Source of the DNA: Flaccisagitta enflata
Lineage: Eukaryota
Length of the DNA stretch: 64,000 nucleotides
Direction of reading: 5' to 3'
Assembly (NCBI GenBank): GCA_965153355.1
Contig: OZ231126.1
Span: 40,486,001 to 40,550,000 of the forward strand
In this document: piece by piece, positions 25,917-54,392 of the stretch
Layout: each line of letters begins with the position of its first letter
How positions within the stretch are numbered: position 1 is the stretch's first letter
Program-made: the position numbers and the translations under genes
The notes under the pieces: generated by a model
Databases searched by the model: none
What the model saw: only the letters and a program-made list of their open reading frames with translations
Told to the model about the DNA's origin: nothing

Positions 25917-26948
25917 CTACAATGATGTTACAATGCTGTCCCCTGAATTTGGGCCTGAGTTGGGGTACTTATTGCTCTTGACCCCATTTGTATGATTCTT
26001 ATCACTGTGACCTTCTTTGCCACAATAACTACAAAAGGCAGTGTAACAACAGTTTTCTTTTTGATGATCCCACCTCCTGCATTTTACGCACATCAACTTA
26101 TTTCTGTTCCGCTTGAATGTCTTAAACCCCCGCGGAGCTCGTGTAACCAATTCATGACCATGATTTTGATTCAGGAGACCTGGTTGCGAGCTCTCAGTGT
26201 TTGAACTATAATGTGCAACCTCACTGACCAGTGGCGGGGTTGCTTGTCTTTCAAAGTCTTTTCTTTTATGTTCCAAAGCCCTTTCAATGATATCTGGTAG
26301 AAGATCGAGATCGTAACATGCTGCAAGAGACTCAATGATGTCTCTTGGAACATTTCCAGCCTCACAAACCCGATTTTTGATCAAATTTGCTCTGTGATTT
26401 TGGTCAAATCTTGGTGCTCCAAGTTTTCCTTTATCATAGATTTCTGCTAGTCTCTTGGTAAGACTGAAGAAGTCTTCACCTTCACTCATTGTTAGGTCGT
26501 TGAATCTTTCAAAGTAGCCTTTGCTCATGAAAACTCTATCACAATTTTCTAGGGCATTCATTACTATTGCCAAAGTCATTTTGTTGCACCCATTAAATTC
26601 CCTACTGTATCTTTGAGCGACATTTTTCATTGAGGATATGCAATGATGTAAATGCTCAGCGACAAAAGGATCTGGAATTCCTTTATCCAACTGCCTTTTT
26701 GCTTCAGCCTCAACCATTTCAACAAAATTCCCATGATCATGACAATGCGCTCTCTCTGGCCATTCCACTGTTTTCATTGCTTTTTGAAAATCAATAATTT
26801 GGTCCAATGAAAATTCCGTTACGTTGACATGGGTCTTCTCTATTGGCTCGTCATCATTTGATTCAAAGAGGTTACTTTGCTTTTCCAAATTTACAGCTAT
26901 AGACGGAATCATGCACTTATTTTCCTCTGCCATACTTTTATCGATCAC
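25917..26948 (-). CDS. gag: Gag-like protein, 343 aa, with no adjacent pol
   Basis: Intact ORF with a capsid-CTD-like segment (FNDLTMSEGEDFFSLTKRLAEIY) and tandem knuckles CVKCRRWDHQKENC and CSYCGKEGHSDKNH. Confidence 0.75.
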   Translation of the reverse strand: MIDKSMAEENKCMIPSIAVNLEKQSNLFESNDDEPIEKTHVNVTEFSLDQIIDFQKAMKTVEWPERAHCHDHGNFVEMVEAEAKRQLDKGIPDPFVAEHLHHCISSMKNVAQRYSREFNGCNKMTLAIVMNALENCDRVFMSKGYFERFNDLTMSEGEDFFSLTKRLAEIYDKGKLGAPRFDQNHRANLIKNRVCEAGNVPRDIIESLAACYDLDLLPDIIERALEHKRKDFERQATPPLVSEVAHYSSNTESSQPGLLNQNHGHELVTRAPRGFKTFKRNRNKLMCVKCRRWDHQKENCCYTAFCSYCGKEGHSDKNHTNGVKSNKYPNSGPNSGDSIVTSL

Positions 26949-27339
26949 TTTCTAATCTTCAAGTCAATGGGATTCTCTTTTGTTTACCTTATTTCGAGTT
27001 AACAATGGGTTAGCCTGATGCGTTTCTTCCAGGTGGCTCTTATTGCTAAAGCAAAGATGTAAAAAATCAAGTCAGATCTGATAGGCACGATGCCTCCTGG
27101 CCCTATCTTGACCTTTCTCGAAATCTACAGTAAAGGTGACAAACCTCAGATTGTCTGTCATGGCCTTGATTGCTTGGCCTTGATTGCTTTGCCTGGATTG
27201 CTTTATTCCTTGCTTGCGTTATTGCTTGCTAGCCTTATTGCTTATAAGTCATGTTCCAACTTCAATGGATATGTGGCACTTGTCTGTTTCAAACTTCAAT
27301 TGTCGTCACTTGCTGTATTTACTTGATATCCACGGACTA

Positions 27340-28403: not shown

Positions 28404-28447
<44 letters not shown>

Positions 28448-28448
<1 letters not shown>

Positions 28449-28906
28449 GTTAAGTTACTATTCAATGTACTGTTAATAATCTGAATTACTTGTTAGACTA
28501 GAAGTTTTCAACTCTTTCCTGAATACTTAGGTAGCATGGAATAGGCCAGGGTTATTACGTTGCAAGCAATGTTCTATTAATAGGTGACAAGCAAGAACCA
28601 ATAGTTAGGTAACAATTTAAACTTACATGTTTATGGAGCATGTGTTGACCCAAGGTAACTTTAGTGGAGGATCCACATACAATGTGATCCTCCCTTTTAT
28701 AGTCAGATATTTTCTACGTAATAAGCTCCACGTATTTAAGAATAACTATTCCAACATGATTCCACGTAGATTAAAGCCACATAAAGTTAGATGTATGTTT
28801 GAGTTAAACATGATACTTTGAACTAGATTAAAGGCGCCTTTGGAAACAAACATAGATGAGAACAGGAATATGTTTCTATCACGTTGCGCACTTTATATTT
28901 GCAACG
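28448..28906 (-). repeat. 3' LTR
   Basis: Matches 44432-44890 except two substitutions seen by eye (GTTCTATT/GTTATATT and AGATGTAT/AGATATAT). Confidence 0.95.
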
Positions 28907-29427
28907 TGACCAATATACTATTCTTACATTACTCCCACATGGTTAAAGTGCAATGGAACTTTTATAACTCAAGGCAAAGTCATTAACAATTCACAAAAAA
29001 ACTTCATTTAGACAAAATACACAAATTGTATACACTTTTCACCAAGATAGTAACGATCATGTAATGCATCAATTATAATAATCAAACAACACCTACTTCT
29101 AATGCGAATGAACCTTATCATTATTGAAGATTGATCTACATGGGAGGAGACTCATTACTATACATATAGTACACTATTATTGCCACCTCATCACTTCAAC
29201 TGTGCCATTATTTCTTTCTTAACACGCTGTATTCACGTGTCCTCTCATTTTGACTTATATATTGACCTCTAAAATTAGGAGAGATAGAGAAAGAGAGACA
29301 GAAATAAAGGAAGAGAGTGAGAGAGATAAGGAGAGAGACATAAAATCAAAGGGAAAGAGAGAGAGAGAGAGAGAAAAATTCTCCTGTCACCGCTCCATTT
29401 CGTCCCCAAAGTATCACTCCTATCCAG

Positions 29428-29571
29428 CCAATCACGTATCTCCGATGCTTTGTCAACTCTAAACTCGCTTCCTTATTGGATAACGAACCAGACAGCAGCG
29501 CGATAATTCGCTATGTCCTCGCCTTTCAATACCCACAACAATTTTCATCGTTGAACTGTCGCATATATAAA
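29428..29571 (+). promoter_or_regulatory. Putative antisense Pol II promoter inside the LTR element
   Basis: GCCAATC near 29428, ATTGG near 29475 and TATATAAA at 29564-29571, upstream of the ATG at 29687. Confidence 0.5.
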
Positions 29572-29686
29572 CCTGTTCACGCAGGTAACATTGGGGTTTT
29601 ATCACTTTAGTTTTCTTGATTTGCTAAATATTGTATTAGATTTCTTTTGCTTTTGCATTTTTAATCATATCCGTCACATTCTCAAA

Positions 29687-30172
29687 ATGTCGCTCATTTC
29701 GCACATTTCCTTTACTCTACTAATTTCATTTGCGTGCTCGCTCAATTCCGACGGCACCCCAACGGCCTCCCCTTCCACTCGGGGCCCATACGCATTTTTA
29801 CGCATGAAGTGTTACCGTAGGCAAGCCTTACATTCCAAGACTTGTCAACGGTATTTTGCGCTTCTTGCAAATTCGACGACGCCAACCATTATGGCTCGTC
29901 AAAATCTCACGACCGACATTGCGGTCACAACTGCAATTCCAACAGCAGTTTTGACCGTAAAACTGGAAACCGGCGTCCCCACCTGGCTGACCACACTTAT
30001 CAGCCTTTTTTCAGTGTTAGCATCCATCTATGCTGCTATTGTATCTTATTTGAAATTCGCGTGCAAATACACCACTGGGTCCAGTCTCCGGCTTGGCTTT
30101 GGTCCGGGCCGCCATGGTCAACTAGAGACCGAGGCACCCGATTTGCCCGTTGAATTGTCTCCAGTGGCCTAG
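29687..30172 (+). CDS. Antisense accessory gene A: predicted type I membrane glycoprotein, 161 aa
   Basis: AAAATG start, signal-like N-terminus (MSLISHISFTLLISFACS), a Cys pair, sequons NST and NLT, a Thr-rich stalk and TM WLTTLISLFSVLASIYAAIVSYL followed by KFACK. AATAAA at 30215-30220. Confidence 0.7.
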   Translation: MSLISHISFTLLISFACSLNSDGTPTASPSTRGPYAFLRMKCYRRQALHSKTCQRYFALLANSTTPTIMARQNLTTDIAVTTAIPTAVLTVKLETGVPTWLTTLISLFSVLASIYAAIVSYLKFACKYTTGSSLRLGFGPGRHGQLETEAPDLPVELSPVA

Positions 30173-30640
30173 ATGGATTTTATTTAAAAAAAAAACTTAA
30201 TTGTTTTTAGTCCTAATAAATATTTTCTAATCCTTCTTCTTTTTATTCCTTTTTGTTTTCGTCAATAATATTTTATCTCTTAATAACTAATATTTTCATA
30301 GTAGTAGACCAAATGATATAACTTTTGATAACTTTTATTCCAATCCATATTGCTATTATTTCTTTTCTTTTCTTTTTGTCTGACTATACAAAAATAAATG
30401 TTATATGAATTTTATTCCTTTCATTAGTTTAAAAAGGTGGGGATTCCGGACTATTTTATCGTTTCCTCTTATTGTTTTACTCATTTATGCTATTTTAATT
30501 AGGTTTAATTTTACTAGGCCAAAATTTAATCGATTTTACCAAAATTTCGAGATAATCACTTTTCATTTTATCACTATACCTGACTAATAGACAGACATAC
30601 CAACTCACTATCCTACCGACTGTCCTACTGACCTCCCGAC

Positions 30641-32329
30641 ATGAAAGGTGATTATCTCTTTGCTAAGGTCAGGGTTGTGCTATGACGCGCAGCCCTGGCC
30701 GTTTGCCCTTACATTTTTATCACAGGCACAATCCCAACCTCACGACGCTAAGATCATACATGCCTCAACGTCTGCTACAGACGCTGCTCCGAGATGGCCC
30801 TGTCAACCCTGTCGTCGAAAGCCACAAGCCGTCGCAGCTCCGCAGCATCCCCGCGGTTCCTGCCAAAATCTCCAGCCTCCACATCCTGGAAGCCTTATCC
30901 ACATCTCGTATCAATTACGTATCGACACGTCCACCAAAAAAAAACGTCCCAAGCAAAGAATTTCGTACAACGGTACCCAGCCCATCGCTCCTGCCCATCA
31001 CGGCCTCAGCATGGTATGCCTCGTCAAAAGCTATTATCACTTTTTACATCCACACGCGAGTTGTTTTTTCGCGTATCAACAAACCACCGACCGACACATT
31101 TCACCTTTTCTTAATTATAAGAACCTGCTCTATAAGACCATCATGGCATTAGCACATCCTAAGATTAAGAACATCATATTTCACTAGTCGTTATTTATGA
31201 AGGTTCCGAAATATCACGTCCGTACAAAATTGTATCAAACCATCACATCTCTTTTTTTCTTTTAGGACACGCTCTCTTTCGAGGCTCTTGAGGAGCACGG
31301 CTGGGAAAGAAAAGCCTGCTCCCTCGCAGTATCTGCCTTAGGTGAGCATAAACTCATTTGACTCCGTCTGTTTTCCAAGCTCGTTCACTCGCTCATAATA
31401 AAAAAACTCCCATCTACGACTTTTTTTACGGTCGGCGAGAGCCGCTTTTATCGTTAAATTCCACTCTCGTATTTTCTCGTAGGGCATTTAAGTGATTGTT
31501 TACCATCCAAGCCGCTGAATCTGGGCAACTTCATCCAAATCGCCCTCCTCGCCTTTTTGGTTCTCTACGTCATCGCCAAAAACCTCCGCAGAGGTGAGAA
31601 TCCATCTCGGGCAGAAACACCAATTATTATAAGCACCGTGCCTAACCATCCGTTTCATGCTGTTTATAAACCAAATGACCAGACATAACGAACAAATCAA
31701 CAAATGAATGAATAAACGAATGAATGAATGACTAACTGAACGATTGACTGAATCATCGAATGAATGACTGACTAACTGAATGAATGAATGAATCACCGAA
31801 CGAATGAATGACTAATTGAATGACTGAATGAATAACCAACTGAATGAACTAATGAATCACTGAACGAATGAATGATTTAATCACCTCCTTTGCCTGTCCC
31901 CGCCCCCATACAGGTTACAAATGGTGTTTTCGCACCCATAAAGTTTTCGTCTCCGACTGTTTGGATCGTCCATCAACAGATCGAGCCCCATCAACCACCA
32001 ACACCGCCACGGACCTTGCTGTCGTCACGACCACGTTTCACCGTCCATCGATGCAGGATGATGCGTGCCCCGACTACGCCACCATCCATCTACCACCCAA
32101 ACGCAGTACTGGTGAGAAAACCTTCCTTCACTCTTACTCTTTTAACGGCCCCCGCGATCTAACCAACCTATCCTTATTTAGCAGTAAATCCATTATTACA
32201 GTATGCCGTCTATAACAGCCTAACATAACTTCATGCCTACATACTTACTCTTACCCAACCATCCACAATGTAGCCATTGAAGCTCCATCCAGCGTCACCA
32301 CCAATGCTGTTGTCCATCTCCCAGCCTGA
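30641..32329 (+). CDS. Antisense accessory gene B: predicted six-exon single-pass membrane protein, about 250 aa
   Basis: Exons 30641-30667, 30726-31013, 31266-31341, 31483-31593, 31914-32111 and a last exon at 32182-32228 or 32274-32329. All introns are GT-AG with compatible phases and the frame stays open. TM is FIQIALLAFLVLYVIA followed by KNLRRGYKWC. Confidence 0.62.
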
Positions 32330-32586: not shown

Positions 32587-33255
32587 CTAGAACGACCAGA
32601 ACAGAGACCTGTATCCTGCCCCAACTGTGTAGGTCTTCCTATCCGTCCATTTAACAAAATTAATCCCATCAATCACAAAAGTGATCAGTTCTTGGTAGAG
32701 GGCTATCCCCTGTTCATTAAGATGGACATTATCTCCTTCAAACAAACATAATCTGGGCAGGGTCCCCCTGTGGTCCTTCTCGGCCACATAGGTATCAGTG
32801 CACCAATGATGGTGCCAGTAGCCGGCCCTGACCATCAACTCATCATACTCATCCACCACCCTTAAGAACCATTCCCCAGACTTAACCAGCGCCTTTTTAT
32901 CCGGTATTCTAGGCAATATGGGCGACGATATGAAGAGACAGCCGGGATTTTTCTCAGCTGTCTCTTTGACCATTTCAGCGATTTGACCCACCAGCTGTGT
33001 TGGTCTCATACCCTTCACTACATCATTACCACCCACTAGGATTAACAGAGCAGAGTAGGCCCCAGCCCCATATTGCAGCTTCTCCAGGATGACCTTCACA
33101 TGCCTCATTCCTCCTCCTGCCACGGAGTAAACGTTGAACCCATTGCGCTGCATAAAAGGCGCAATTCTTGAGACGTGACTATCTCCAAGACAAAGATAGG
33201 AGTACTTTTCGTCAATCCATCTTGACACCTTTTTTCCATGAATCTTTCTCGGAAC
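32587..33255 (-). CDS. SGNH/GDSL hydrolase in the env position, probably expressed by splicing
   Basis: Blocks LCLGDSH, VAGGG, LVGGNDV and GDNVHLN are all present. No ATG start, but an in-frame phase-0 acceptor TTTAATCAG|GTT opens the exon at 33255. AATAAA on the minus strand near 32361-32366. Confidence 0.85.
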   Translation of the reverse strand, partial: VPRKIHGKKVSRWIDEKYSYLCLGDSHVSRIAPFMQRNGFNVYSVAGGGMRHVKVILEKLQYGAGAYSALLILVGGNDVVKGMRPTQLVGQIAEMVKETAEKNPGCLFISSPILPRIPDKKALVKSGEWFLRVVDEYDELMVRAGYWHHHWCTDTYVAEKDHRGTLPRLCLFEGDNVHLNEQGIALYQELITFVIDGINFVKWTDRKTYTVGAGYRSLFWSF

Positions 33256-33936
33256 CTGATTAAATTAACAAGGATATCATCCCGTCAATCATCAATCAGA
33301 GTTAACCCACCACCTAAATTGTCATAACATTATTCTTAACACGATAAAAACTTATTCTTTCATTTCTTTTTAAAATTACATCATATTCAGTCCATATCTA
33401 CTAATTAAACCTTTTTTTTAGGATTTTATCAAAACTCTTTTCATAAAATTTCAACAAAATTTTATAAAAATACATTTTTCCAAAATTATATCAAAATTTT
33501 ATCAAAATTTTATCAAAACTCATTTTTATAAAAATTTTATCAAAATTCTATCAACATTTTATAAAAATTTTGTTATCAAAAAAATTTTTTTTTTTTTACC
33601 AAATTCTATAAAAATGTACCTTACCAAAGTCATACCAAAACTTTATCAAAATTTCATCAAAATTTTATCAAAACTCTTTCTTTTTTTTATAAAAGTTTTA
33701 TCAAAATTCCATCAACATTTTATAAAACCAGTAAAGTTATATCAAATTTCTCCACCCTCAAATTTCAATAAAATTTGAACCAATTCCTACAAAATTATAT
33801 CTTCACTCCAAGAAATCTAATCAAATTTTGTCAAAATCAATCAAATGACACTTGATGTCATATACTGAAATACCCAACTAAAGTTCCTTCAATCACATGA
33901 CATACTAATACCACCTCAATCAGCTATTGCTGACTA

Positions 33937-36900
33937 CTAATTATTATCTAATTTGTTCATTAATGCTTTTGCATCATCCAATGACAGCCTACTCCGTATC
34001 ATTTGATCTATAGGAAGAAGCTTTTTAGTACCATCTAACACATTTTTGCACAAGTACATACTTGTCCCTACCCGTCTTTCTATTGAGAAACACTCGACCA
34101 CACGTTGCTGTAATTTGGGCGCCATGTTCCTAGAGAATTGCATCCGCTTTCTAAAAACAATTGACCCATGTTTTAGGGCCTCGTTTGGAAAAAGATATGC
34201 CTTACGCTGAAGTAATTGCTTAAAAGTCACATCCTTAATTAACTCATGCATTTTGTTAATCTGCAAAAATGTCTCTTTTGCCCTCCCCCCCCCACCAACA
34301 GGTTCCTCCAATGGGGTCAGTGTGGACAAGAAACGCGGACCTTTACGGAATATCAACTCGTTAGGAGAAAATCCACCCAACGATACACAAGGTGAGGAAT
34401 TTATCAAGAATGTTGCTTTACCTAGAACATCCGACCATTTAGATAGGTAATCTTCCCCATCTAGCAGTCTTAATATCACTATAAGCAGATCTCTAAATTT
34501 CCGCTCCACCAATCCTTGGCTCTCGCTCCTGTGATTGCTCCGGATAATCCCCACCCTCAAACCATCCAACAGCTTTTTATCCACCTTTCTAAAGCTGACG
34601 CAATTTCCATCAATCATTACATATTCAGGCAGACCATTTTCCCCAAAATAATTAGTGAGGGCTTCACAAAGTTCTTCTGCCCCCGTGCTTTTCATCTTTA
34701 TCGTCGTCAGCCCCTTATTGTAGTTATCTACTAAGGCCAGTATATATCTATAAGACTTAGATGCCGGGAGGGGACCTAAATAGTCCAATTGCAACCATCT
34801 GCCAGATTGCGTGGACATCAATGTAGAGTTTTTGCCTTTTATCACCTGTTTGACATTGTATTTAGTACAGGGGACACATAAAGCAATCTGATATCTAGTC
34901 ATATTAAACATTCCTGGCGAATACCACACCTCCCTTAGCTTATCAAACACTTTCTTGGTGTGCATGTGGCCATGCTCAATATGCAAATTATTTATTTTCT
35001 CCTTCAGCCCCTCCTCCCCTACATATATTAAAGGAGATATCACACCCTCGGTTGTCACAAACAGCCGAAATATCACCTTTTGTAGGCTAATTTTAAATAA
35101 TGACAGATGTCTTATTACTGACCACCACCTATTATTGAATCTCAAACTATCGCTTTTATCAGGGATATTTTCCACCCCTTCCTTCCAGCCTCTTATCTTC
35201 CTTCCCATTTCATCATCTTGCCCCTTTAGGATCCCTTCAAGATCCTCATCTTTTACCATGGGTAATTCATAGTCGCTATAAATATCATCGATACTCATCT
35301 CCTCTATCCCTTCCTCTAATTCCGCAGTCGTCAAACGCAAGGACGCATCCGCCACACCCTCAACTGCCCCTTCCTCCTCCTCTACCTCTTCTTTCGCGTC
35401 CTCTACCACCTCCTCCTCCTCTTCCACCGCGTCCTCTCCCGCCTTCTCCTCCGCCTTCTCCTCTTCCTCCGCGTCCTCTACTGCCTTCTCCTCCTCCTTC
35501 GCGTGCTCAACCGCATCTCCCTCCTCCACTGCATTCACCACCGCCTCCTCCTCCTTCTCTTCCTCCTCCGCATCCGACGCCACATCTTCCTTTTCCGCCT
35601 CCATTCCCGCTTCCTCCGCTTTCAAGGGCCATGACGAATGCAGGACTCCCTCGCTGCCCAATATCTCATCTCTCATCCGGAGAACAAAGCAGGTACATGA
35701 GCAGTGATCATCTTTCTCCGCATTATTCCATCCCCCACACTCGCAAGGGGAGCATTTTTCTTTCCTACTTTTCAACCCCTTCAATTCTCTCTCCTCACTT
35801 CTCCTCGTCTTTCTCCTCCTCCTAGCCGCCTTTCTCATTCCCCTTTTACCTTTCTTACTGATATTCAGCCCAACGTGAGGGTCAGCCACAACCCCCACCC
35901 ATTCCTCATTACCTTTCCCACCTCCACCCAACCCTGACATAGCAAGGTGGATTTTTTCTGTCACATATTTGTCAGTGCTATTAATCAATCCCTTCATAGC
36001 CAACAATGTGTGTTTGTGTGTCTGCGCTGTTGTGTGAGCATTTGTATGTGTGACTAAGTGGTTCTCAGGGACATTATCATCCCGCCTTGGAGTTACACTC
36101 GGATTTTTACTAAACCTTGGAGCTACGCTCAAACTAGGACATTGCTCACTAATGACAGGTGCGCCGGGAAGATCCTTCCCCTGTAGGGCTTGCATAGGCC
36201 GCTCCGGCGCCCCACTGCCGCACTGGGCAGTTATGTTTATACTATGGGTCGCCGCTCCCCAGCTTCCCAATGATGGGGGCATGTGAGCTCTGGCCCCATC
36301 ATTGGGAATTGCCCCCGCCGCACAAGGGGCAATACCCAAAGTCAAACCCACATCACTTTTAGGTTTAAATGAGTTTCCCCTTTTCACCCGCCCCTCCAGT
36401 CTGTCGGAGGTCAAGTTCACGAGGTCCCCCCCTTCAAGTTCTAAGGGTTTAATTTCCCCCCCTCCCAATTCCAGTCTGGCGGAATTGGGAGGGGCGGGAC
36501 CCCCCACTCCATCTACCTTGGGTATCTTAGCTAGGGGCCCTTTTTTAGTCTCCATAAAGTACCGGTTTATTACCGGTTTATTAGTTCTCTTTTGTCACGC
36601 GAAAAAAGTTTATCAACCCCCAATTGAATTCCATTTGCATTGAAAATCTTTAAGGACCCTAACGGGTTATATTCGTACGGTAATCTTGCTGCTACGTCCG
36701 ATTTGTCCAATCTTGATAGTATGTCTGCCTGCTCCTGACTGGACGGAACGAATCTTACTTCAATGTTATAGTCGCTTATATAAATAAGCCAGCGAGCAAC
36801 CCGCTCACTGACTATCTCCATGGATACCCAAAAACTAAGGGTCCTGTTATCCACAAAGCATACCGCGGGCACTGAGGTTTGGATATAGCACCTCCATTTA

Positions 36901-39383
36901 CGAAGACAGAGATATAATGACTGAAGCTCAAGCAAACACATTGGGAGCAACGTATCTCTATCTGGTATAGATTTTGCATAATATTGAATCAAATATAACC
37001 TTACAGTTTTAGGGTCCAAACCTTCCTCCCTCACCTCCCTCTCGCTCACCCTCTGAAACTGAGAAAGTAAGCCCCCACAGCCTGTCCTTGAACTGTCACT
37101 CCACAGTACAAAGAACTCCTTAGCTGTGGGGTCCCTAGGGGGCCTCAAACACCCGCTCACTGGACAAAGTAGGATGGACAAGGCCTCACAAAGTTGGGAT
37201 TCATTTTCAGAGCTCCAGGAGAAAACTGCCCCTGCCTTGGCCACCTTCCTTAGCCCATGCATGGGGTCTTTCAAGTTAGCCCTCCCTGCGTACCAACTGA
37301 GAAGGCCTAATATTGACCTCAACTCATCCTTATTCCTTGGGGAGGGGATATTTCTCAAGTCCGTCATCTTATTTGAAGCAATTCTTATCATATTATTATG
37401 TTTCAAAGCATAACCTAAAAAATTTACACACTTCCGTGGAAGTTGAGTCTTTTTAGGACCTATGAGTAGTTTAAAAAAACTAAAAGCAGCCAATAGCCCC
37501 TCCACATTGTCTTTTAGCCCTACCAATGACATAGAATATATCATATAATCGTCAATGTAGGCAACTGTTTCCTTACAATGTGCAGTTACCAACTCAGAGC
37601 AAGCCTGACTCATCTGAGGGGAATTTTTCCCCCCTTGCTGAGGTGTTGTAAAGCGATAAACCCCATCATCCCCCACATAAAAAGCAGTTAAATCTCTAGA
37701 GGAGGCCTGGAGGCCGATTTGGTGAAAAAAATTAGTCATATCATAGGTCATGAAATATTTACCACCCCTACAACACGACTCAAGCACATCATCCATGATG
37801 CGTAATTTGCATGTTACGGTCTTCATGATTTGATTCTGATTTCTTGAATCAAGGCAGAACCTATAAGCCATCTTAGGGCCATCAGGGTAATTCTTTATCT
37901 GGCCTAAAATCAAAGGGTTGCAAATATAGCTAGAAGAGTTATTTTCACATCGTTCTAGTATACCTGCCTCTACCCAATCCTTCACAAACTTCCTTAAGAC
38001 CTCCATCTTCTCAGGGGATAGCCTCCTAAATTTATCAATTCTAGGGCCCGACCCCTCCACTGTCTCAATACTAAATTCTGGTATGTTGGCCCTAGTCCAA
38101 CAACTCCAACTACCATTCCAGAATGTATTTCTATATGCCCAGAATAATTCCTTATATTCCTCGGCATATTTCACTGCCCCTTCCCTACCTAGGTCTTCCT
38201 CCAACTCGTTCACCATTTCATCCCATTTGAACATAGACAAGAACTCTTCTTTATTCTTCCACATCCTGTCATTGTCATTCTTTCTTCTTTCCTCCTCCCT
38301 GTCAATCTTATGTTTCCTTCCTACCTCCCCAATCTCTTTCACCTCCCCTTGTGGGGGTTCAATCACTCCTCCATGCTCATAAAAATGATCCAGCTCAGAA
38401 GGGGTCAATTTTCTCCTTTCTGTACCCCCGCTACCCCCACCATCATTCATCTCCGATTTCAACACTCTATCGCCAGACTGACAGACATCTTCAATCACTT
38501 CATTCAGCCTAACAATACAGATTGACTCACTTTGTGCAGCCGCAAATCCTATGGTTTCTCCCGATCTAATTGTTAAAGGTACCTTTCCCTTATTTACAAC
38601 AATCATTTGTAACCCCCCTTCCTCCACTTTCTCATATACAGTGCTGAGGGGAAACCTGGCCTCCGATTCGAAGCCCACTAACGCCAAGGAACCAGTCAGG
38701 CGCGAAGTCAACTCTACATTAACCAACTCTGCTGCATTTCCAGGTAAAATGTACTCCATTGTAGTTACTACGTGTACATAGTCAGCCCCAGTATTCATCA
38801 TTCTCTTGAGATCTGACCTCGAGTTGCACAGAGAGACAATATGTGACCCTATAGACAGTGTACTGTTTTCATAGTTTACAACTGCCCCTAATTTACCCAA
38901 TGCATCACTCCCCATCAAGACTGGGATATCAGTCTCCACCACATAAGCCAACAAAGTTATTTTTAACTGTTTACCCTCCTTGCTCCTAAACCACACCCTG
39001 AGTACTGTGTAGTCATAGCAACTGATTTTTCTACCACCCACCCCTGTAATATCCTTTGGCTTGGCAAACCTTTTCATAGGCAATCTCAATTGCCTGGCCA
39101 AAGATAACGGTATCAACGATCTATCAGACCCGGAATCTAACTCAAGGGCAAATTTTTCCTTCCCCTGCCCAGCCTCCACCTTCCCCACCAAAAATAGGGG
39201 TTGTGCCGGGCCCTGGTCAAAATTTACCCCCTCCATCTGACCTATATCCCTCAGCTCTTCCTTAGTCAAAATATGCACCTTTTCCACCTCAGTATCCTTC
39301 TCCCCCATGAGTGACTGCTCCTGCCCAACCTTTTTGTCAGCCCTCTGAACATAATCCTGCTCAGTGCCCAAAACTCCGTCTAG
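33937..39383 (-). CDS. pol: Pol polyprotein (PR, dUTPase-like, RT, RNase H, long linker, integrase), split by an 11-bp duplication
   Basis: PR LELDSGSDRSLI; RT RFCLDSR, YDMTNFFHQI, QQGGKNSP, AYIDDYMI; RH WSDSS, LLELQS, FVDNR, QADILSR; INT HIEHGH...CVPC, LQLDYLG, MIDGN, SQGLVER. The ORFs 36570-39371 and 33937-36555 fuse if one TACCGGTTTAT copy (36560-36581) is removed. Confidence 0.95.
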
Positions 39384-40310
39384 TCACTCCACATCGGAGA
39401 AGTCTGAATCTTGAAATGTGAAATCCTTAAAATCATCAGCAATTTTCATAACATTTGTCCGTTTTTCCACCACGCTATCCCTCACCCCTAAGAAAGTGGT
39501 CAAATTTCGTGGGGCTTTCCCACAAATCAGAGAATAGTGGCGGCATACCGAGCTCTTTTTCCCACAGAAGCGACAATGAGTTTTCTTACACTCAGTCACT
39601 CTGTGCTTATCCGAAAAACATTGGAAACATCGGTGATTAACCCCTTTGTCCGTGGCGACCTCAAAATACTTTCTAAGTGGGTCATCAAAGATTTTGTGGC
39701 ATACCTCATCCTCTTCTTGACCTTGATCACCCCCTCCCACCATCAACACTGAGTCCCCAGGTTTCTCCGTCTGTAGATTGTTTGAGATGCTCACAGTCAG
39801 CTCCATTATCTCCTTGAACTCAAGGGCCTCAAGGTTGTGGCGTCGCACAGCTGCCCTTAGGCTAGCTGAGGTCAGTCCGTCTATAAACTTGTTAATCTGT
39901 GGCTTCAGCTCAAACCCCATAAGGACACAAAACCCCTTAAATCGTCTAGCATAGTCACGTATGCTCCCCTTAAGTGGGTAGGACTGTGTAAGCTTATCAA
40001 ATCCAATCCGTAGGGTGGATGTAGGGGCAGGCCAAATTGCAGCAAACAGGTCCTTAAAAAACGTATTTAAGTCCCATTTCCCACTTTCTTTGCATTCATC
40101 GTATATGAAATTTGCTTCCCCCCTCAAACGCTTATCACAATTATGCATGACAACCATAACTTGCGTTTTTTGAGTCTCCTCCCCATAGTACAACATAACT
40201 GCACGGTGAAGCAAAGACTGGGATTCTATGAATTCCGTTATGTCTTGTGTATCAACCAGCTTCACATCAATGATTTTGTTGCTCTCACTAATGATTTTTC
40301 TTACGCTCAT
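39384..40310 (-). CDS. gag: Gag (capsid/nucleocapsid), 308 aa
   Basis: Capsid-CTD-like LTQ...SIRDYARRF...KFIDGL and knuckles CFQCFSDKHRVTEC and CRFC...H...C. In frame with pol. Confidence 0.88.
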   Translation of the reverse strand: MSVRKIISESNKIIDVKLVDTQDITEFIESQSLLHRAVMLYYGEETQKTQVMVVMHNCDKRLRGEANFIYDECKESGKWDLNTFFKDLFAAIWPAPTSTLRIGFDKLTQSYPLKGSIRDYARRFKGFCVLMGFELKPQINKFIDGLTSASLRAAVRRHNLEALEFKEIMELTVSISNNLQTEKPGDSVLMVGGGDQGQEEDEVCHKIFDDPLRKYFEVATDKGVNHRCFQCFSDKHRVTECKKTHCRFCGKKSSVCRHYSLICGKAPRNLTTFLGVRDSVVEKRTNVMKIADDFKDFTFQDSDFSDVE

Positions 40311-43300
40311 TCCCGCAGGAGGACGGTAACGACGTCTGCCATGTCCCTGCCATGTCCCGAGGTCGACGTATCGCTGTAATCGTCGTCTTCATCGACATTT
40401 CGCCTTCCTCCATATCCACGTCGTCCATCATCATCACCACGACGGTCCCCGCCATCGTCCCGGCGTCCATCGTGACGAGGATCGTGTTCATCCTGTCCTC
40501 GGTCGCCGCCTCTTTGACCATCGGCGGCCGCCGCCAGAAATGGCGCTGTCGATCTCACCACGTGGTTTCCCGTTGACGCCATCCCGAAGAGCCGTGAATT
40601 AATATCACCCTGATGCACGCCCGTCGACGCTGTGCCCAGACCCAACGACGCTCTCGACATCATCCCCGTTGTTGGAAGGTCGTGAGACTGTGGCGCCACA
40701 CTTTCTGTTGCCGAAAACTTTATCGCTTCCGCCGCCGGTAACTTCGCCGCAGTCGCCGCCTCAATCGCCGTAAGGCGGCGTTCCGACTCCGCCACCCTCT
40801 GGATCACCTCCTGTTGCGTCTTCAAAGCAGCATCTCTCTCTTTGATAGCTTGATCCCTCTCGGCCTCCACTTCAGCCATCGTCTTCCCATCCGAGCTCAA
40901 CATCGATCCAGCGAACCCGGTAAGCTGCTGCTCTTTGCTGTTCAGTTCAGCTCGGGTCAAAGTCAACTTTGATTCCAAATCTTCCAGCCTGTTAGACCAA
41001 TTAACAATACCGTGACCGTCTTTTTCCCTCCCAGATTCTCGATGCGCGCCCAACATCATTCTTGGAAAGCAGAACAACTCACACCACCGCCCCTCAGGTA
41101 AGATTAGTCACCATCAACAAGCGCCTTTCATGAATGATAGACTGACTGATCGATTGAATGAATGAATGAATGAATGAATGAATGATTGAACGAATGATTG
41201 AATGAATGAATGATTGAATGTATGAATGATTGACTACATGAATGAATGAATGAATGAATGACTGAATAAACAAATGAATGAATGAATAAATGAATGAAAG
41301 AATGAATGAATGAATGACTAAACAAATGAATTATTGCATGAATGACTGAATGAAAGAATGACTACACAAATGAATGAACGAATGAATGAATGACTAAACG
41401 AATGAATGAACTACTGAATGAACCAACGACTGAATGACTGAATTACTGAACGAATCAACGACTGAATGAATGAATGAATGAATAACCGAATGAATGAATG
41501 AATGAACAACTGAATGAACAACCGAATGAATGAATGAATGAATGAATAATTGAATGAATGAATGAATGAATAACTGATTGAATGAATGAAAGAATGAATA
41601 ACCGAATGAATGAATGAATGAATGAATGAATGAATGAATGAATAACCGAATGAACGAATGAATGAATGAATAACCGAATGAACGAATGAATGAATGAATG
41701 AATGAACAACCGAATGAACAACCGAATGAATGAATGAATGAATGAATGAATGAATAACCGAATGAATGAATGAATTAATAACCAAATGAATGAATGAAAG
41801 AATGAACAACCGAATGAATGAATGAATGAATGAATGAATGAATGAATGAATGAATGAATGAATGAATGAATGAATAACCGAATATGTGCCAACTTTCATT
41901 ACACAGAATTGCGAACGCAACGACGAGAGAAAATAACATCCGACGGACACACATGCGGCGAATCAATATCCGACATGCCCTAAAAATCTCCGCAAAACGA
42001 AAATAGAGAAAAAGACGACCGGACACTTTAGGTGGCGAGCGCATGCCGAGGACGAAATTGGATAACCAAACGGAGAAAAACAGGTGCGGAGAAATCAGTG
42101 TGAATGATACGAGTTGGTACATGATGAGTTATAGGAAACCCAAAGAAACTTATCAAGTCGCGATACAGCCTAGTTTGCAATAGCTACCGTTAAAAATTTT
42201 ACTAACACTTTCCCACTCTTACCAACTTATATCAATTTAACAACATCTAACACAATTTATAACAAATCTTATCAAAATTCCTAAAATTCTACCAAACCCT
42301 AACAAATTTAATAATTCCTAACAAATCTCATCAAATTTTGAATTTTGGCAGACTTCAACACATTCACACAAATATCATCGCAATTAATATAATATTAAAT
42401 TTCATTTATTTTATTTTACCAACTGTATAAGTTCTATTAACCTTCAATAGCTTTTATTAAATCTTATCAAATCTACACCATTTTAACAAACACTATTCAA
42501 ATCTATCAATTTTACTAAAAATATCAACAATTTTTAACAAATATCAACAATTTCTAATAACTTTTACCAAACTTTAGTAAATTTTAGTAAATTTCAACCA
42601 AAATAAAATTTTACAAAATTTTAACAACTTTCTCAGCAAAATTAACAAACTTTAACAACTTTCAGCAAATTTTAGCATATTTAACAAATTTAACAATTTT
42701 AACAAATTTTTAACAAAATTTTAACAAATTTAAACAAATTTTAGCAGATTTTAGCAGATTTTAGCAGATTTTATCAGATTTTATCAGATTTTAGCAAATT
42801 TAACCAATTTAACAAATTTTACAAAATTTCAACAATTTCTTAACAAATTTTAACAAACTGTAACAAATTTTAGCAAATTTAACATATTTAACATATTTAA
42901 CCAAGTTTAATCAATTCTAACTAATTCTCACAAAATTTAACAAAATTTTAACAAATTTTAACAAATTTTAACAAATTTTAACAAATTTTAACAGAATTTA
43001 ACAAAATTTTACCAGAGTTTAACATACTTCCACCAAATTTTATTTTGATCTAATTTAAGTTATTTGATCATTTCATATCTTATAACATTTTATCATATCA
43101 TTATCTTTCTGATCACACGCCTTTTCTTGTTTTCAACCTACATAGGTCCGATACTCTCCCCACGATGCCAGCCTACTGACCTATCATCCATCAACACAAC
43201 ATACGTGTCCCATCCACAGGTATCTACCTTTCTCTAGCAGCTGCCAGATCAGTACTCAATGTTTGATTCCGTAAACGAAGGTCTTCCTTCTCAGCTTCTA

Positions 43301-43969: not shown

Positions 43970-44419
43970 ATTGATACGAATTTACAATCTATCCTCCTAT
44001 TTATGTACTGTCAGTCCGTCTGTCATATGTATGTTAATTTATCATTTACTAAAAATATGTATACTTTCTATCTTTTATAAGAACCTGTTAAGAACATCAC
44101 GCTTTTACTCAATTTAAACCAATAACACATCACTCCTCCACCAATTACCTAAAAGACGTGATGGTCTCAACGTCCTCAAAAACATAAAAAGTGTATCATA
44201 TAGTCCCGCACAATAGAGCACCGACCAACACATCCCTGTGACACAGCCGGTGACTTGGCCTACCCACCCGCTGTGTCACCGGGACATCCATCATCCAATA
44301 CCGACAAAAGACGGAGACTTACAGTAGATACAAACACCCTACTCGATTTTCAATGCAAATGAAGCCCAAAAATTATTCCCCCCCTCCTGATCCCCACATT
44401 GCCCACAACGCGAAATGAC

Positions 44420-44431
44420 CGCTGCTAACCA
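44420..44431 (-). promoter_or_regulatory. Primer binding site, initiator-Met tRNA-like
   Basis: TGGTTAGCAGCG directly follows the LTR end ...TAACA. It matches the complement of an iMet tRNA 3' end CGCUGCUACCA with one extra base. Confidence 0.7.
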
Positions 44432-44890
44432 TGTTAAGTTACTATTCAATGTACTGTTAATAATCTGAATTACTTGTTAGACTAGAAGTTTTCAACTCTT
44501 TCCTGAATACTTAGGTAGCATGGAATAGGCCAGGGTTATTACGTTGCAAGCAATGTTATATTAATAGGTGACAAGCAAGAACCAATAGTTAGGTAACAAT
44601 TTAAACTTACATGTTTATGGAGCATGTGTTGACCCAAGGTAACTTTAGTGGAGGATCCACATACAATGTGATCCTCCCTTTTATAGTCAGATATTTTCTA
44701 CGTAATAAGCTCCACGTATTTAAGAATAACTATTCCAACATGATTCCACGTAGATTAAAGCCACATAAAGTTAGATATATGTTTGAGTTAAACATGATAC
44801 TTTGAACTAGATTAAAGGCGCCTTTGGAAACAAACATAGATGAGAACAGGAATATGTTTCTATCACGTTGCGCACTTTATATTTGCAACG
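44432..44890 (-). repeat. 5' LTR
   Basis: Direct repeat of 28448-28906; TATAAAA on the minus strand near 44680; followed by the PBS. Confidence 0.95.
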
Positions 44891-44897
44891 TGTGGGT

Positions 44898-44947
<50 letters not shown>

Positions 44948-44951
44948 GCGT

Positions 44952-44993
<42 letters not shown>

Positions 44994-49548: not shown

Positions 49549-52500
49549 ATGTGGCAGGGTGCCACAAGTAGTGAGGAGGAGGAGGAGGAGGAAATCTATC
49601 AAACTTTTAAAACTGCACAAGCGAGTGAACCACCATCTAAAAAAGGTACGAAATCAAAAAGCCATCTAGCTTTGATCAAAATCTGTTCTAACTAACTGAC
49701 AAAATCTGTAAGACAACGAGAGAGCGTCAAAAACATTTTTCTTCAAGTTTCTTTTGTAAAAGACTTTTTGTTACACATTTCATAGTAAAAACGCCAAATT
49801 CTAACCACTAGTAAACGCGGCATTTGTCTCTATGAGTGTCTGTTTGTTTCTGTCTGTTTGTGTCTATTTATCTCTCTGTGCCTGTCTGTGCCTGTCTGTG
49901 TCTGCCTGTTGCTTGTGTGTCTGTGTGTATCTCTCTCTTTCACTATTTCCTCTGTCTGTCTCAGTCTGTAAAGAATGAATGAGTGTGTAAATGTGTGAGC
50001 ATATAATCTCAACATGTATGAGTGCATAAAAATGTAAAACTAGTAAACGCGAGAGCAAATGTGAGAGCAAATGCAACAATTGCAAGTATAAACAGGTGAG
50101 CAAGTGTAAAAGTGTAAGTATGAATGTAAATGAGATCATGTTAGAACGACTGCTTGCGATATCAAAGTCAATTGAATGAAGTATGCCATCACAGACTTCA
50201 AGTTATACCATCATAAACTTCAAGGTATTCCATTGTATAGGGTATTTTGATTACAAAGTATGCCATCATGGGTTTCAATGTATGCCATCATGGGCTTCCA
50301 GACAACAACGATTGACCAACCAACCAACAAACATATAGAATTGGAAGCTGTTCATCATGGACTGAATATTGCAAAGGAAAAAGAGAGAATAAGGCCGGAT
50401 ACAAGGTCAATACCAGTCGCGGACGGATGGGCAGGGGTGGAAATGTGCGTTTTTGCACTTTCTCAACTCGATCACCATGACCAACAGACCAACCGCCGGA
50501 CAAAGCCTTTTATAGAGTTGCTAGTCTGCAACTAAAAAGGCTAGATAAGTCATCAGTCATTATTCTATTCATTTTCGTTTATTCAGCTAAAATTGACATG
50601 AATCGATTGAATTCTCAAGATGAAGTCGAAGATGATGTACAACCTCACTGTTTGCGGTACACAGACAGACAAGATTATGACGCACAAACGGGAAACAGTG
50701 CACGATCAGTCGGCGGTGCACAAAGACTCAGTACACGACGACGAATAGAGAGTAAAAAAAGCAAAGGAAAAGGCAAAAGTAAAAATGAAAGAGGAAAGGG
50801 CAAAAGTAAACGCAAGCGTGAATGGCTTGGTAGAGGACAAGGATATTTTGATTATGAACATACAGCCAAGTCTTTCTTTAAGGTTTCGGACAAGATTGGA
50901 AAAGCACGGTCGAGTTTTGAAAAAAAAAAGAATCGAAAGAGGAAAATAAGAATCCATTTAAGGAAAGAGGACAGATGTCCCATCTGTTACAAAAAACTAC
51001 GGAATGATTTTGAAAAAAACTCACATTTCCGGTCATGTTTATTTGGTGCTAAGTCAAAGCAAGGGGGTGCGGATACAGATGCGGACACAGATACAGAGAC
51101 AGAGACAGAGACAGAAAGAGACAGACAGAATGAAGCTCAGAATGAAGAACAGAATGAAGAACAGAATGAAGCGCAAAATGACACATTCCAAATATGGCGC
51201 AAAAAGTTTTATCATCGGCGTCTCTTTTACACTTATTACAAGAACATAATCATTGAAACAGATCTAAGTTGAAACTTTGGTCGATTACGACCTTTGTTAC
51301 AAACAGAAATTGAACAACGTTTAGAACAAGACAAAAGTATCAAAGTTGGTCTTAACACTTCCATTTTATTAGGCAAAATAATTTGATACTGATGTAGAAA
51401 ATTATCATCTGCAGAGGATTGAATATGTTTTTACTGGCCTGATTGAAATAACATATTCTAATCAGATTGATGACTTACTGGAATTTTTCTACAATCACAC
51501 TGAAAATACAATAGCCTCATACCTTGATTCAGGATCAAATTTTGTCCTAATAAACCTTATTCAATATAGACTTGAGTGTGTCAAGTTAGCTGGTATGGCT
51601 GCGAGAAAATATCAAAAGTTGCCTGATAGCATAAAACCGAAATATGTCATTCAATTATATAATCTCAAGAGAGAATGTCTACTGATGGTTATCACATTGC
51701 ATATTACTATGCAAAAACGATATAGAGGGTTCCCAAAAAGTCATTGGTCGAGCCTGTTACCAAGCATTCTGAATGATGAACAATTTGAGCTGATGTGTAG
51801 TGAAACCTACAACGATTTGTTTGCTAAGAGTGGTCATTTGTTTCCTCTCAAATCAGGGAAACAAAACTTTCAAAAATTGAAATCAGCCCTTGATCTAGAA
51901 GATTATTATTTCAATATAATATGGAGTGGTGAAAATGGTGTTATAACTGTGTACGCCGATGCTGGAAAGAAAAATTTTGTGGGTACAACAGAGGAACAAC
52001 AGATACAAGATTTTGAACAGTTTTCAATCGATATCCTGATTTTCAATGAAAAGCCGGTAAATTTAATGAAAACAATTCAGTCTGGCCATGCGGCTCTGAT
52101 TTGTAATTTGTCCGCTCTCATAGATCAAATACGGGACAGGCGGAGACACGCTCACTTTTACTGTCGTTTATGTTCTTTTCATTATCGTAAGAGGGCCGTG
52201 TTTCTGGATCACATCAAAAATGATTGTTTGAAAAGAAACCCTGATTATCAATCAATTACCATGCCTAGTCCAAATCATAAAAATAGGCTGAAGCCAAAAG
52301 AACCAGAGCTTTTGACAAATGAAAAAAAGGGGCTAATTGGCCCTGTATTCATTGCAGTAGCTGACATTGAAGTATCCTTCGCTAAGACTGAAAATGCTGA
52401 ACAAAGGTTGAATGATGGTGAGATTCTAAATGAAGACTGTTTTGGTGTGGTCGCATCAGCTTGCTTGACCCCCACTATGGAATTTTCATGTTACGATACA

Positions 52501-52659
52501 CCAGAGATACGTTCTTACAAATCGCATACATATCAACCAATCATAACGGACGGCGAATTTTGCGTGTATGATATGATAGTTGCCTTGATTAAGCAATTGC
52601 AAACAGCAAAAATGCACCTTGACCATATTTGTGAGTTCTACACACTGATAAAAAAATGA
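49549..52659 (+). pseudogene. Polinton/Maverick-type protein-primed DNA polymerase B, N-terminal half only, disrupted
   Basis: Motif order typical of Polinton pPolB: SIKVGL, DSGSNF, YQKLPDSIKPKYVIQLYNLKRECLL, HAALICNLSAL, FYCRLC...FLDHIKNDC, ITMP, ExoI-like VFIAVADIEVSF. Stop at 51270-51272 and a frameshift near 51380. Predicted upstream exon at 49535-49645. Polymerase catalytic motifs are absent. Confidence 0.75.
50390..50538 (-). mobile_element. HINE/DINE-1-like element inside the predicted pPolB intron
   Basis: Minus strand reads TTTTT, hairpin AGTTGC-agacta-GCAACT, then CCCCTGCCCATCCGTCCGCGACTGG...TGTATCCGGCCTTATT, the same 3' end as 253-470. Confidence 0.72.
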
Positions 52660-53374
52660 AAATTATATTTGTTGATATTATAATTTTTGGTTCCAAAGTT
52701 ATATTTTTCAAATTTTTGTCTTATTATATAGATTATATAGTTGGGTCGACTCTTTCTTTTTTTTATCAAAATGGTCCTTGGGGAGGTCGCTATCATTGTT
52801 CAAAAGATGAGCATTAGTGCTTCAGCGGTGTGCTAGCTAGGAACGATTAACTGTTATTACACCAGTTATACAATGACGCTCCAAAAAATTTTACTGAAAC
52901 ACTTATTTGAGGATTGATCATGGTCTCCACTATCAGGAAAAATCCATACATTTACATATAGAGTGCTGCAGTTAAAAAAAATGGCTGCAAAGAAAAAGCC
53001 TTAAAGTTATATTGATTGTATTTTCTGCGCCGGCAAGTCGAGAAACTGTATAATCGATCTAATTGGACTCTAAAATTTTGGTCCAAAAATGGAAAAAAAA
53101 AAAAACATTGGAAATCGACAAATTATCGTGAAAAAAGGGCCTAAAAAAATTTGATAAAAAAAGTTAAAGTCCGGGAGTATTATAATCCATATAATAATAC
53201 TTAAAAAAAAAAAAAAATATTCTGGATTTAGACGTTTCAAACAAAAATAAAAATTGGAAAAAAAGTTGAAAAAGAGTTAAAGTTTTTTTAATTATATTTA
53301 GAGTCTAATTTAAAACATAAAATTTTGCCAATCTGACAAAATATCTCAAAACGCCTAAGTTTTTTGTTCTTTTG

Positions 53375-54392
53375 TTTTGGCTGCCAGGATGCTCACTCTT
53401 CTGGATTCCCTTAGTTCACTGTTGCCCTTTTGTCCTTGCTCTAAGCCGGCGGGACTCTGCTGCTCTGCTGCTTCTCTGCTGCTTCCACTGTTCCTCTGTC
53501 CCTAGGCATCCTCTGCTTGGTCCAATGACGTAACTGTCATGGCAGCCTCCTTGCTCTAAGCCGGAGAAACTCCGCTGCTCTGCTGCTTCTCTGCTGCTTC
53601 CACTGTTCCACTGTCCCCAAGCATCCTCTGCCTGGTCACATCACCTAACTGTCATAGCAGCCTCTTTGCTCTAAGCCAGAGGGACTCTGCTGCTCTGCTG
53701 CTTCTTCTCTGCTGCTTCCACTGTTCCTCTGTCCCTAAGCATCCTCTGCCTGGTCACATGACCTAACTGTCATGGCAGCCTCCTTGCTCTAAGCCAGAAG
53801 GACTCTGCTGCTTGGCTGCCAGGATGTTCTTTTGTTTTGGCTGCCAGGATGCTCACTCTTCTGGATTCCCTTAGTTCACTGTTGCCCTTTTGTCCTTGCT
53901 CTAAGCCGGCAGGACTCTGCTGCTCTGCTGCTTCTTCTCTGCTGCTTCCACTGTTCCTCTGTCCCTAGGCATCCTCTGCCTGGTCAAATGACATAACTGT
54001 CATGGCAGCCTCCTTGCTCTAAGCCGGAGGGACTCTGCTGCTCTGCTGCTTCTTCTCTGCTGCTTCCACTGTTCCACTGTCCCCAAGTATCCTCTGCCTG
54101 GTCACATCACCTTACTGTCATAGCAGCCTCTTTGCTCTAAGCCAGAGGGACTCTGCTGCTCTGCAGCTTCTTCTCTGCTGCTTCCACTGTTACCCTGTCC
54201 CCAAGCATCCTCTGCATGGTCGCATCACCTAATTGTTATAGCAGCCTCTTTGCTCTAAGCCGGAGGGACTCTGCTGCTCTGCTGCTTCTTCTCTGCTGCT
54301 TCCACTATTCCTCTGTCCCCAAGCATCCTCTGCCTGGTCACATGACCTAACTGTCATGGCAGCCTCCTTGCTCCAAGCTGGAGGGACTCTGC
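53375..54392. repeat. 118-bp tandem repeat (mirrored at about 61868-62880)
   Basis: GCTCTAAGCC recurs at 54016, 54134 and 54252; about eight units with a higher-order duplication. Confidence 0.92.

Follow-up and report, generated by a model that had tools for sequence, protein, structure and literature searches.

Two conserved antisense genes for small membrane proteins in a Ty3/gypsy element of Flaccisagitta enflata and their possible role in Env-independent transfer

The window analysed here is a 64,000-nucleotide stretch of the Flaccisagitta enflata genome (GCA_965153355.1, contig OZ231126.1, positions 40,486,001 to 40,550,000). It contains a young Ty3/gypsy retrotransposon of 16.4 kb on the minus strand, whose long terminal repeats (LTRs) are 99.57% identical over 461 nt. 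Along that strand the element carries gag, a protease-reverse transcriptase (RT)-RNase H frame, an integrase frame and an SGNH/GDSL esterase open reading frame (ORF), in that order. In its 3' region, antisense to these and overlapping no sense ORF, sits a gene for a predicted membrane glycoprotein, which we call aORF1. Between aORF1 and SGNH lie the plus-strand exons of a second gene (gene 2). We read aORF1 as one of a pair of accessory genes that a distinct Ty3/gypsy clade carries on its antisense strand. The assignment to Ty3/gypsy (Metaviridae) follows from the LTRs, gag, the pol order protease-RT-RNase H-integrase and a target duplication. A second copy of the element (C3) has a complete 481-nt TG...CA LTR and a 4-nt target duplication, and no env-sized ORF is present in the element.

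An earlier note, made from the letters alone, had described a plus-strand type I membrane glycoprotein gene here. The elements it listed are all present: a CCAAT box at 29428, a TATA-like motif at 29564, a 161-aa ORF and AATAAA at 30215. Hydropathy, structural model and sequence agree on a signal-like N-terminus, a cysteine pair, two N-glycosylation sequons (N62 and N73), a Thr-rich stalk, a transmembrane segment and the tail put at about 40 aa, which is 42 aa long. A hydrophobic N-terminus and a transmembrane segment, whose absence would have counted against the earlier note, are both present; the predictions rest on hydropathy (Kyte-Doolittle value of 2.2 in an 11-residue window for the N-terminus) and on AlphaFold helices 3-20 and 99-125. 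The first model had a predicted local distance difference test (pLDDT) score of 56 and the second a mean of 72. Cysteines stand at positions 17, 42, 53 and 126, and the model has helices 36-42, 45-49 and 51-63 in the region of the loop between the second and third. Helix 51-63 is slightly more amphipathic than shuffles (0.33 vs 0.26). The ectodomain is about 80 aa after the predicted signal peptide, half of it disordered in the model, which at 161 aa overall bears out the view that the protein is too small for a classical Env. Searches of aORF1 against Pfam, NCBIfam and PDB sequences returned weak hydrophobic matches only. Against Atlas the best scores were 0.80 and 0.77, with Flu M2 at 0.76, which is chance level. 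Foldseek, a check the earlier note had proposed, was run on the model with BFVD and VIA-align and gave no clear match (best Z 3.9, on the transmembrane helix). Comparison with viral fusogens gave nothing at E<=0.001 or Z>=5, although for so small a model absence does not exclude a relation.

A protein search of the genome produced 23 matches from 30 candidates, one of which (L027, low complexity) was dropped. Of the remaining 22 loci, nineteen are open from end to end; the other three are a fragment, a copy with a stop and a copy whose end is altered. Searching with the most distant member added another open locus, and with 20 of 23 loci open the frame is not broken in most copies. The loci fall into seven families (A-G), and those that could be aligned are 22-49% identical to the window protein. 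An SGNH match lies on the opposite strand, convergent with aORF1, at 19 of the 20 open loci, in agreement with the proposal that the protein is element-encoded and antisense. The remaining open locus, in family C, shows neither SGNH nor pol in the 20 kb that were fetched around it. In two broken loci SGNH and aORF1 share a strand, probably through rearrangement. Open aORF1 occurs in 15 of the 21 elements with an RT match at E<=1e-21, and none of 11 more distant (outgroup) gypsy elements has a match in the 10 kb behind RT. In the RT tree the carriers group together, with weak support for the whole group (80/78). Among 11 copies of family B, 58 synonymous and 47 non-synonymous changes fell on 131 and 367 sites, respectively (dN/dS 0.29, p 3e-10). 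Pairs within family E gave 0.28-0.31, and comparisons between families 0.28-0.42, where dS is near-saturated and one pair was not computable. In the six families tested, the aORF1 frame alone stays open. At the level of sequence, these data show that aORF1 is a real antisense gene that is bound to this clade and evolves under purifying selection. A passive passenger, either a chance ORF or a gene captured from the host, would fit the lack of transcripts in the RNA data given below, and families C and G have no pol in the stretches fetched. However, it is already largely refuted by selection and clade-wide conservation: dN/dS among copies is low, one frame alone is open, position and orientation are fixed, and the matches, though of limited sensitivity for spliced genes, include no free-standing host copy, which the earlier note had suggested looking for. 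We consider a passenger very improbable.

A profile of eight genomic members retrieved 51 public proteins at E<=0.001. Fifty appear to be family members and one, a 4201-aa match, is due to chance; P0019, like L027, was discarded as a low-complexity or chance match. Alignment A2 (42 rows) combines 35 of these 51 proteins, P0053 and six members from the genome. The other 16 were left out: fragments, near-duplicates, calls that were frameshifted or extended, the chance match, and the full-length P0026 and P0035. Both loop cysteines are invariant at a spacing of 10-13, Tyr115 and Gly137 are nearly so, and the loop region has a conserved F-L-x-x-x-C face. Features were counted on 41 rows after one truncated row was dropped. 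The N-terminus is hydrophobic in 40 and the ectodomain has a sequon in 33. A basic patch lies behind the transmembrane segment in all 41, with 2-6 Lys/Arg in 20 residues (three in the window protein). MG begins the protein in two rows, and a cysteine lies near the membrane in the window protein and in many, not all, relatives. A C-terminal V/I/L is found in 26 of 41 (background 21%) and S/T-x-V/I/L in 14 of 41; p-values for such row counts are optimistic because the rows are related. None of the 20 public clusters examined carries a name or accession, and viral contigs and JGI metagenomes yielded no context for the family in other organisms. By the features compared, aORF1 represents a new, unannotated protein family of at least 50 members. 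In a literature search that did not extend to Repbase, subscription journals or supplements, we found no description of the family or of the layout. A term search of the available parts of PMC13524379 and PMC2678813 found no antisense or SGNH/esterase passage.

We take the S/T-x-V/I/L C-termini to be PDZ-binding motifs. This raises the possibility of host manipulation, in which a surface glycoprotein would protect the expressing cells against immune cells, or act through PDZ scaffolds on junctions or signalling. The PDZ-type ends in 14 to 26 of 41 relatives, the mucin-like stalk with its sequons and a Tyr-based motif in the tail of gene 2 are in keeping with it. However, aORF1 showed no family or fold link to immune modulators in the profile and fold searches, and the gain for a genome-bound element would be less direct. 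Such a role is unlikely.

Gene 2 is conserved in families A-E. Its four predicted exons, joined across three GT-AG introns, give 163 codons without a stop. In family C the ATG stands two codons before the donor, and one family B copy is without the ATG exon. Intron 2 is absent in family C, where both exons form one frame, and this is good indirect evidence that the strand is transcribed and spliced. The predicted product lacks a signal-like N-terminal hydrophobic stretch; its first 39 aa, which include Cys19 and Cys32, lead into a transmembrane segment at 40-58 with six Lys/Arg behind it. Within the tail exon, position 32112 marks another donor, which has counterparts in families B and C. Among public proteins the spliced product has a single match, P0077, which reads through intron sequence and therefore derives from DNA and is not transcript evidence. 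A complex prediction of aORF1 residues 95-140 with the family C gene 2 exon, a cross-family stand-in, scored 0.02. Plus-strand ORFs at 30645-31187 were considered as genes and rejected, as they are not kept in the C3 copy or in other families.

The earlier note had given aORF1 its own promoter and polyA signal, and this model has to be revised. CCAAT boxes are enriched upstream of aORF1 across the seven families (14 vs 2.7 expected, p ~9e-7, in a search window set after viewing). The TATA-like motif occurs in four of the seven, 17-21 nt before the donor GT. AATAAA within 100 nt after the stop is found in one of the seven; it arises in 10% of shuffles of the AT-rich flank, making it weak as well as not conserved. 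All seven have the splice-donor-like site, 86-209 nt before the ATG, against a background of 13% per 140 nt for a pattern defined after viewing the sequences. A TATA-directed start falls 25-31 nt downstream of the motif. In the window the donor is 21 nt behind it, so that such a start would land behind the donor at 29585. Either transcription starts upstream and the TATA-like motif lies within a short leader exon, or there are two starts. A simple TATA model is therefore doubtful, given also that the donor is conserved in 7/7 families and TATA in 4/7. For the candidate leader intron, families E and G showed no equivalent YAG acceptor. Before the ATG exon, another acceptor, with its end at 30725, could allow the leader donor to splice past aORF1 to gene 2. 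Antisense introns and polyA signals would survive reverse transcription, because the sense genomic RNA does not read them.

A promoter apart from the LTR might also permit expression while the element is silent, as would suit superinfection exclusion or self-limitation, with the protein occupying or removing the receptor of incoming relatives. The strong divergence between families, to 22-49% identity, fits family-specific recognition. Exclusion needs an entry route, however, for which the element has no other gene, and several related families coexist in the genome. We find this distinctly unlikely.

Table 1. Features of the element and its antisense genes, in window positions.
Feature	Position	Strand	Basis or remark
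aORF1, 161-aa type I membrane protein gene	29687..30172 (ATG 29687, stop 30170-30172)	+	ORF, homologues, hydropathy, model
Predicted signal peptide, ~aa 1-20	29687..29746	+	hydropathy; model helix 3-20
Cys42-x10-Cys53 loop, helix-loop-helix	29810..29845	+	A2 alignment; model
Thr/Ser/Pro-rich stalk with sequons N62, N73	29870..29980	+	composition; model without helix or strand, pLDDT 55-64
Transmembrane segment, aa 101-119	29987..30043	+	hydropathy, Kyte-Doolittle 2.12; AlphaFold helix 99-125
Cytoplasmic tail with basic patch and Cys126; motifs L-x-L-G and A-x-x-x-P conserved	30044..30169	+	hydropathy, A2 alignment
Gene 2, four exons	31011-32215: 31011-31013, 31266-31341, 31483-31593, 31914-32215	+	
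Gene 2 candidate upstream exon, ends in ATG (31011-31013) then donor	30726..31013	+	ATG/GT in families A, B, D, E
Gene 2 coding exon, E/D-H-G-W-x4-5-C motif	31266..31341	+	families A-E
Gene 2 exon, second Cys and transmembrane segment	31483..31593	+	family comparison; fused to preceding exon in family C
Gene 2 tail exon	31914..32215	+	family comparison
CCAAT boxes, forward 29428 and reverse 29475	29428..29479	+	motif; antisense promoter region
TATA-like motif TATATAAA	29564..29571	+	motif
Splice-donor-like site CAG/GTAAC, GT 29585	29582..29590	+	7/7 families; candidate
Candidate short 5' untranslated-region intron	29585..29639	+	sole YAG acceptor before ATG >40 nt from donor
AATAAA, possible polyA signal	30215..30220	+	42 nt between stop and motif
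3' LTR, TG...CA, 481 nt	28448..28928	-	461 nt in common with 44432-44892
5' LTR, outer 20 nt absent, GT repeat beyond	44432..44892	-	LTR comparison and C3 copy
Primer-binding-site-like sequence, starts TGG	44411..44431	-	sequence inspection
gag, two frames	39384..41107	-	Retrotrans_gag E 0.021 (weak); kept in families B, E, F
pol, protease-RT-RNase H frame	36570..39383	-	RVT_1 E 5.5e-16; RT_RNaseH
pol, integrase frame	33937..36594	-	Integrase_H2C2 E 1.9e-5
SGNH/GDSL esterase ORF, sense to pol	32587..33264	-	Pfam Lipase_GDSL_2 E 9e-9

On the sense strand, pol is split over two frames meeting near 36.6 kb, and the first of these has 4ol8 (RT/RNase H) and 7q5b (Ty3-G Gag-Pol) as its top PDB matches. 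The window element is inserted in a GT microsatellite (28407-28447, 44893-44990) and for the C3 copy (C3:7295884) the site is a short tandem repeat and the duplication GTGG; from these two sites only, a preference for GT-rich targets is possible. Similar degenerate arrays occur in two pairs (41130-41875, 31703-31875, 42526-43024, 33423-33727). They consist of ATGA-type units and A/T-rich 10-11-mers, each found upstream of gag and again in the 3' region, and an ATGA array occupies intron 3 of gene 2, in family B too. Pairs of the same LTR (92-97%) lie at C5:62353686-62372492, C6:54550002-54563113, C2:96.78 Mb, C8:26.62 Mb and C7:53.98 Mb. The two that were fetched have no aORF1 and retain only some 0.7-0.8 kb of pol plus short pieces next to the LTRs; judged by their content they are probable non-autonomous derivatives. 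At C1:104-111 Mb, single, mostly broken or rearranged copies from several families of the clade are clustered in what could be a transposon-trap region. Elsewhere in the window are a near-perfect palindrome (52290-64000; arms 53938-58070 and 58191-62322, 99%; 118-nt tandem units) that runs past the window end, a fragmented non-LTR-type RT region (6932-9479, plus strand, RVT_1 E 2.6e-15), and long ORFs of 263, 425 and 344 aa (50481-52659, plus strand; 25917-26951, minus strand) with no Pfam match.

The SGNH esterase has 29 matches in the genome, and its S, G, N and H are invariant across five families of 25-57% identity. With its catalytic residues intact and its gene adjacent to the antisense pair, it suggests that the antisense proteins could be a membrane anchor for assembly or export, recruiting capsids to the membrane together with the esterase and packing them into budding particles or vesicles. 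They would then serve as a tether or minimal envelope and not act at contacts between cells. The conserved basic tail with its L-x-L-G motif would fit such a role. In the available parts of the sources, retroelement esterases are tied to membrane targeting (PMC5408684) and HIV ASP, an antisense product, has been reported at the surface of both cells and virions (PMC8156140). However, the invariant ectodomain Cys loop and its conserved F-L-x-x-x-C face argue for a partner on the outside, and the visible SGNH frame has no signal peptide or transmembrane segment. An anchor function is rather unlikely.

Because the element has no env, because small transmembrane proteins have a precedent in the MDG1 group, and because an attachment-like and a FAST-like protein are split between the two genes, we favour a role of aORF1 and gene 2 as an Env-independent cell-to-cell transfer module, with a probability of roughly 0.45. 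An internal CCAAT-driven promoter near the 3' LTR would make a short leader that is joined by splicing to aORF1 or, skipping it, to gene 2. aORF1 would enter the endoplasmic reticulum via its signal peptide and be displayed at the surface, where a glycosylated stalk would carry a helical head closed by a disulfide while the basic tail stays inside, and in many relatives the PDZ-type end would place it at cell contacts. There it may tether or position the producer membrane against a neighbouring, perhaps germline, cell, while gene 2, a signal-less membrane protein resembling the small transmembrane proteins associated with fusion (FAST proteins), would open or shape the contact. Capsids could then pass directly to the neighbour, the pair replacing Env, as proposed for sORF2.

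Comparison with known systems, drawn from the available parts of the papers cited, places aORF1 outside Env, FAST and sORF2 by the features compared, although it may work alongside or like them. Small transmembrane proteins have been implicated in moving LTR capsids to oocytes (PMC11952523). The sORF2 of Drosophila MDG1-group LTR retrotransposons (PMC11952523, PMC13486581) resembles aORF1 as a short single-pass accessory protein of env-less Ty3/gypsy elements, with a basic patch after the membrane segment and purifying selection. However, the sORF2 candidates are sense and were selected by N-myristoylation, a motif of most members, whereas aORF1 is antisense (19 of 20 open loci, one being without a marker) and begins with MG in 2 of 41 rows. 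Compared by description, aORF1 adds a signal peptide, a glycosylated stalk, a Cys loop, a putative promoter of its own and a second spliced gene. The published sORF2 screen covered arthropods and kept myristoylated candidates, all sense to gag-pol; its authors note that other variants were excluded (PMC11952523). In cultured-cell assays with read-outs such as adhesion and fusion, sORF2 gave a negative result (PMC11952523). FAST proteins have an ectodomain of fewer than 40 residues, acylation and a basic cluster, and the p10 members (see also PMC12945298 for reovirus p10) an 11-residue cystine loop (PMC3961370). At 161 aa, aORF1 falls within their range of 95-198 aa, with a single transmembrane segment in a predicted N-out topology, a membrane-proximal basic cluster, a Cys loop of 10-13 residues vs 11 in p10 and, in many but not all relatives, a membrane-proximal cysteine. 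Its loop is basic, in place of a hydrophobic patch, and no homology or fold match was found. The predicted spliced product of gene 2 is small and lacks a signal peptide, with a 39-aa ectodomain, a Cys loop and a basic cluster, and from its predicted features appears to fit FAST and sORF2 better than aORF1 does.

Other precedents concern parts of the arrangement. The Tor env of Oikopleura is likewise a membrane glycoprotein of a marine-animal gypsy element with an internal promoter, and Tor env is expressed near germ cells, but it yields furin-cleaved products of 60-65 kDa with seven cysteines in the normal retroviral arrangement, unlike the 161-aa, antisense aORF1 (PMC4402516). More generally, the large cleaved fusion ectodomain of retroelement Envs (class I, F-type, gB-type, Tor) is not matched by aORF1. 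The plant elements Retand, Grande and RIRE2 have accessory ORFs on the antisense strand, placed between pol and the 3' LTR, with tandem repeats there and, as reported for Grande, an own promoter. Their TRP28 products are probably DNA-binding or nuclear, whereas here we find membrane proteins and introns in an animal clade (PMC11963269). The TRP28 domain (PF04195) had no match in 42 aORF1 family members. Bdelloid Vesta elements have an SGNH esterase behind pol, and small transmembrane ORF3s are proposed there as env substitutes; that of Vesta4 has 220-230 aa, two transmembrane segments, RXXR and a coiled coil. In Vesta, esterase and transmembrane proteins are alternatives in one ORF3 slot, whereas here an esterase stands with two antisense transmembrane genes (PMC5408684). 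HIV-1 ASP is also a small, antisense-encoded surface membrane protein of a retroelement, but it has two transmembrane segments and overprints env, whereas aORF1 overlaps no sense ORF (PMC8156140). In these sources the separate parts thus have precedents, namely sense sORF2, Tor env, the Retand TRP28 ORFs, the rotifer GDSL ORF3 and HIV ASP.

Several observations weigh against a transfer module. No sequence or fold link from aORF1 to any fusogen or attachment protein was found. aORF1 differs from FAST proteins in its signal peptide, its ectodomain of about 80 aa and the MG start in 2 of 41; since that ectodomain exceeds the limit of 40 aa, fusion brought about by aORF1 on its own is the less likely option. 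Amphipathicity of residues 123-138 does not exceed that of shuffles (0.21 vs 0.28), and the window's own aORF1 is without a PDZ-type end. P0026 and P0035, both full length, have an acidic stretch in place of the Cys loop, with stalk, transmembrane segment and tail retained. Six of the 21 clade elements have no detectable aORF1; three of these are truncated, one has a 400-nt deletion over aORF1, and the last two showed no match within about 20 kb. For families F and G no gene 2 was detected, which means that the two genes need not occur together, and the upstream ATGs at 30760 and 30794 in the first exon of gene 2 tell against efficient translation. Independent antisense control could uncouple aORF1 from capsid production. 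Finally, among 12.2 million records of one polyA RNA run, about 6% of the run, no reads fell on aORF1, the LTR or the first exons of gene 2, and the two records on the stretch both lie on a GA repeat. The element is apparently silent in this sample, and the run is uninformative, neither supporting nor refuting an antisense transcript. A more specific form of the transfer reading is doubtful: an old animal gypsy clade with two-component, Env-free transmission by an attachment glycoprotein and a FAST-like fusogen, made from an alternatively spliced antisense unit under LTR-independent regulation and working with the esterase.

The question of how LTR elements without env pass from cell to cell or from host to host has only lately been opened. 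The family described here has at least 50 members, small glycoproteins in which conserved residues are plain to see, and a second gene, FAST-like in its prediction, lies next to it. Should these proteins mediate transfer, they would form a new minimal attachment and fusion system. If the two-component form is true, it would be an independent route to infectivity, with attachment and fusion split between two tiny proteins. Even otherwise, conserved spliced antisense genes in an animal LTR element would be a natural example of how introns can survive retrotransposition by their orientation.
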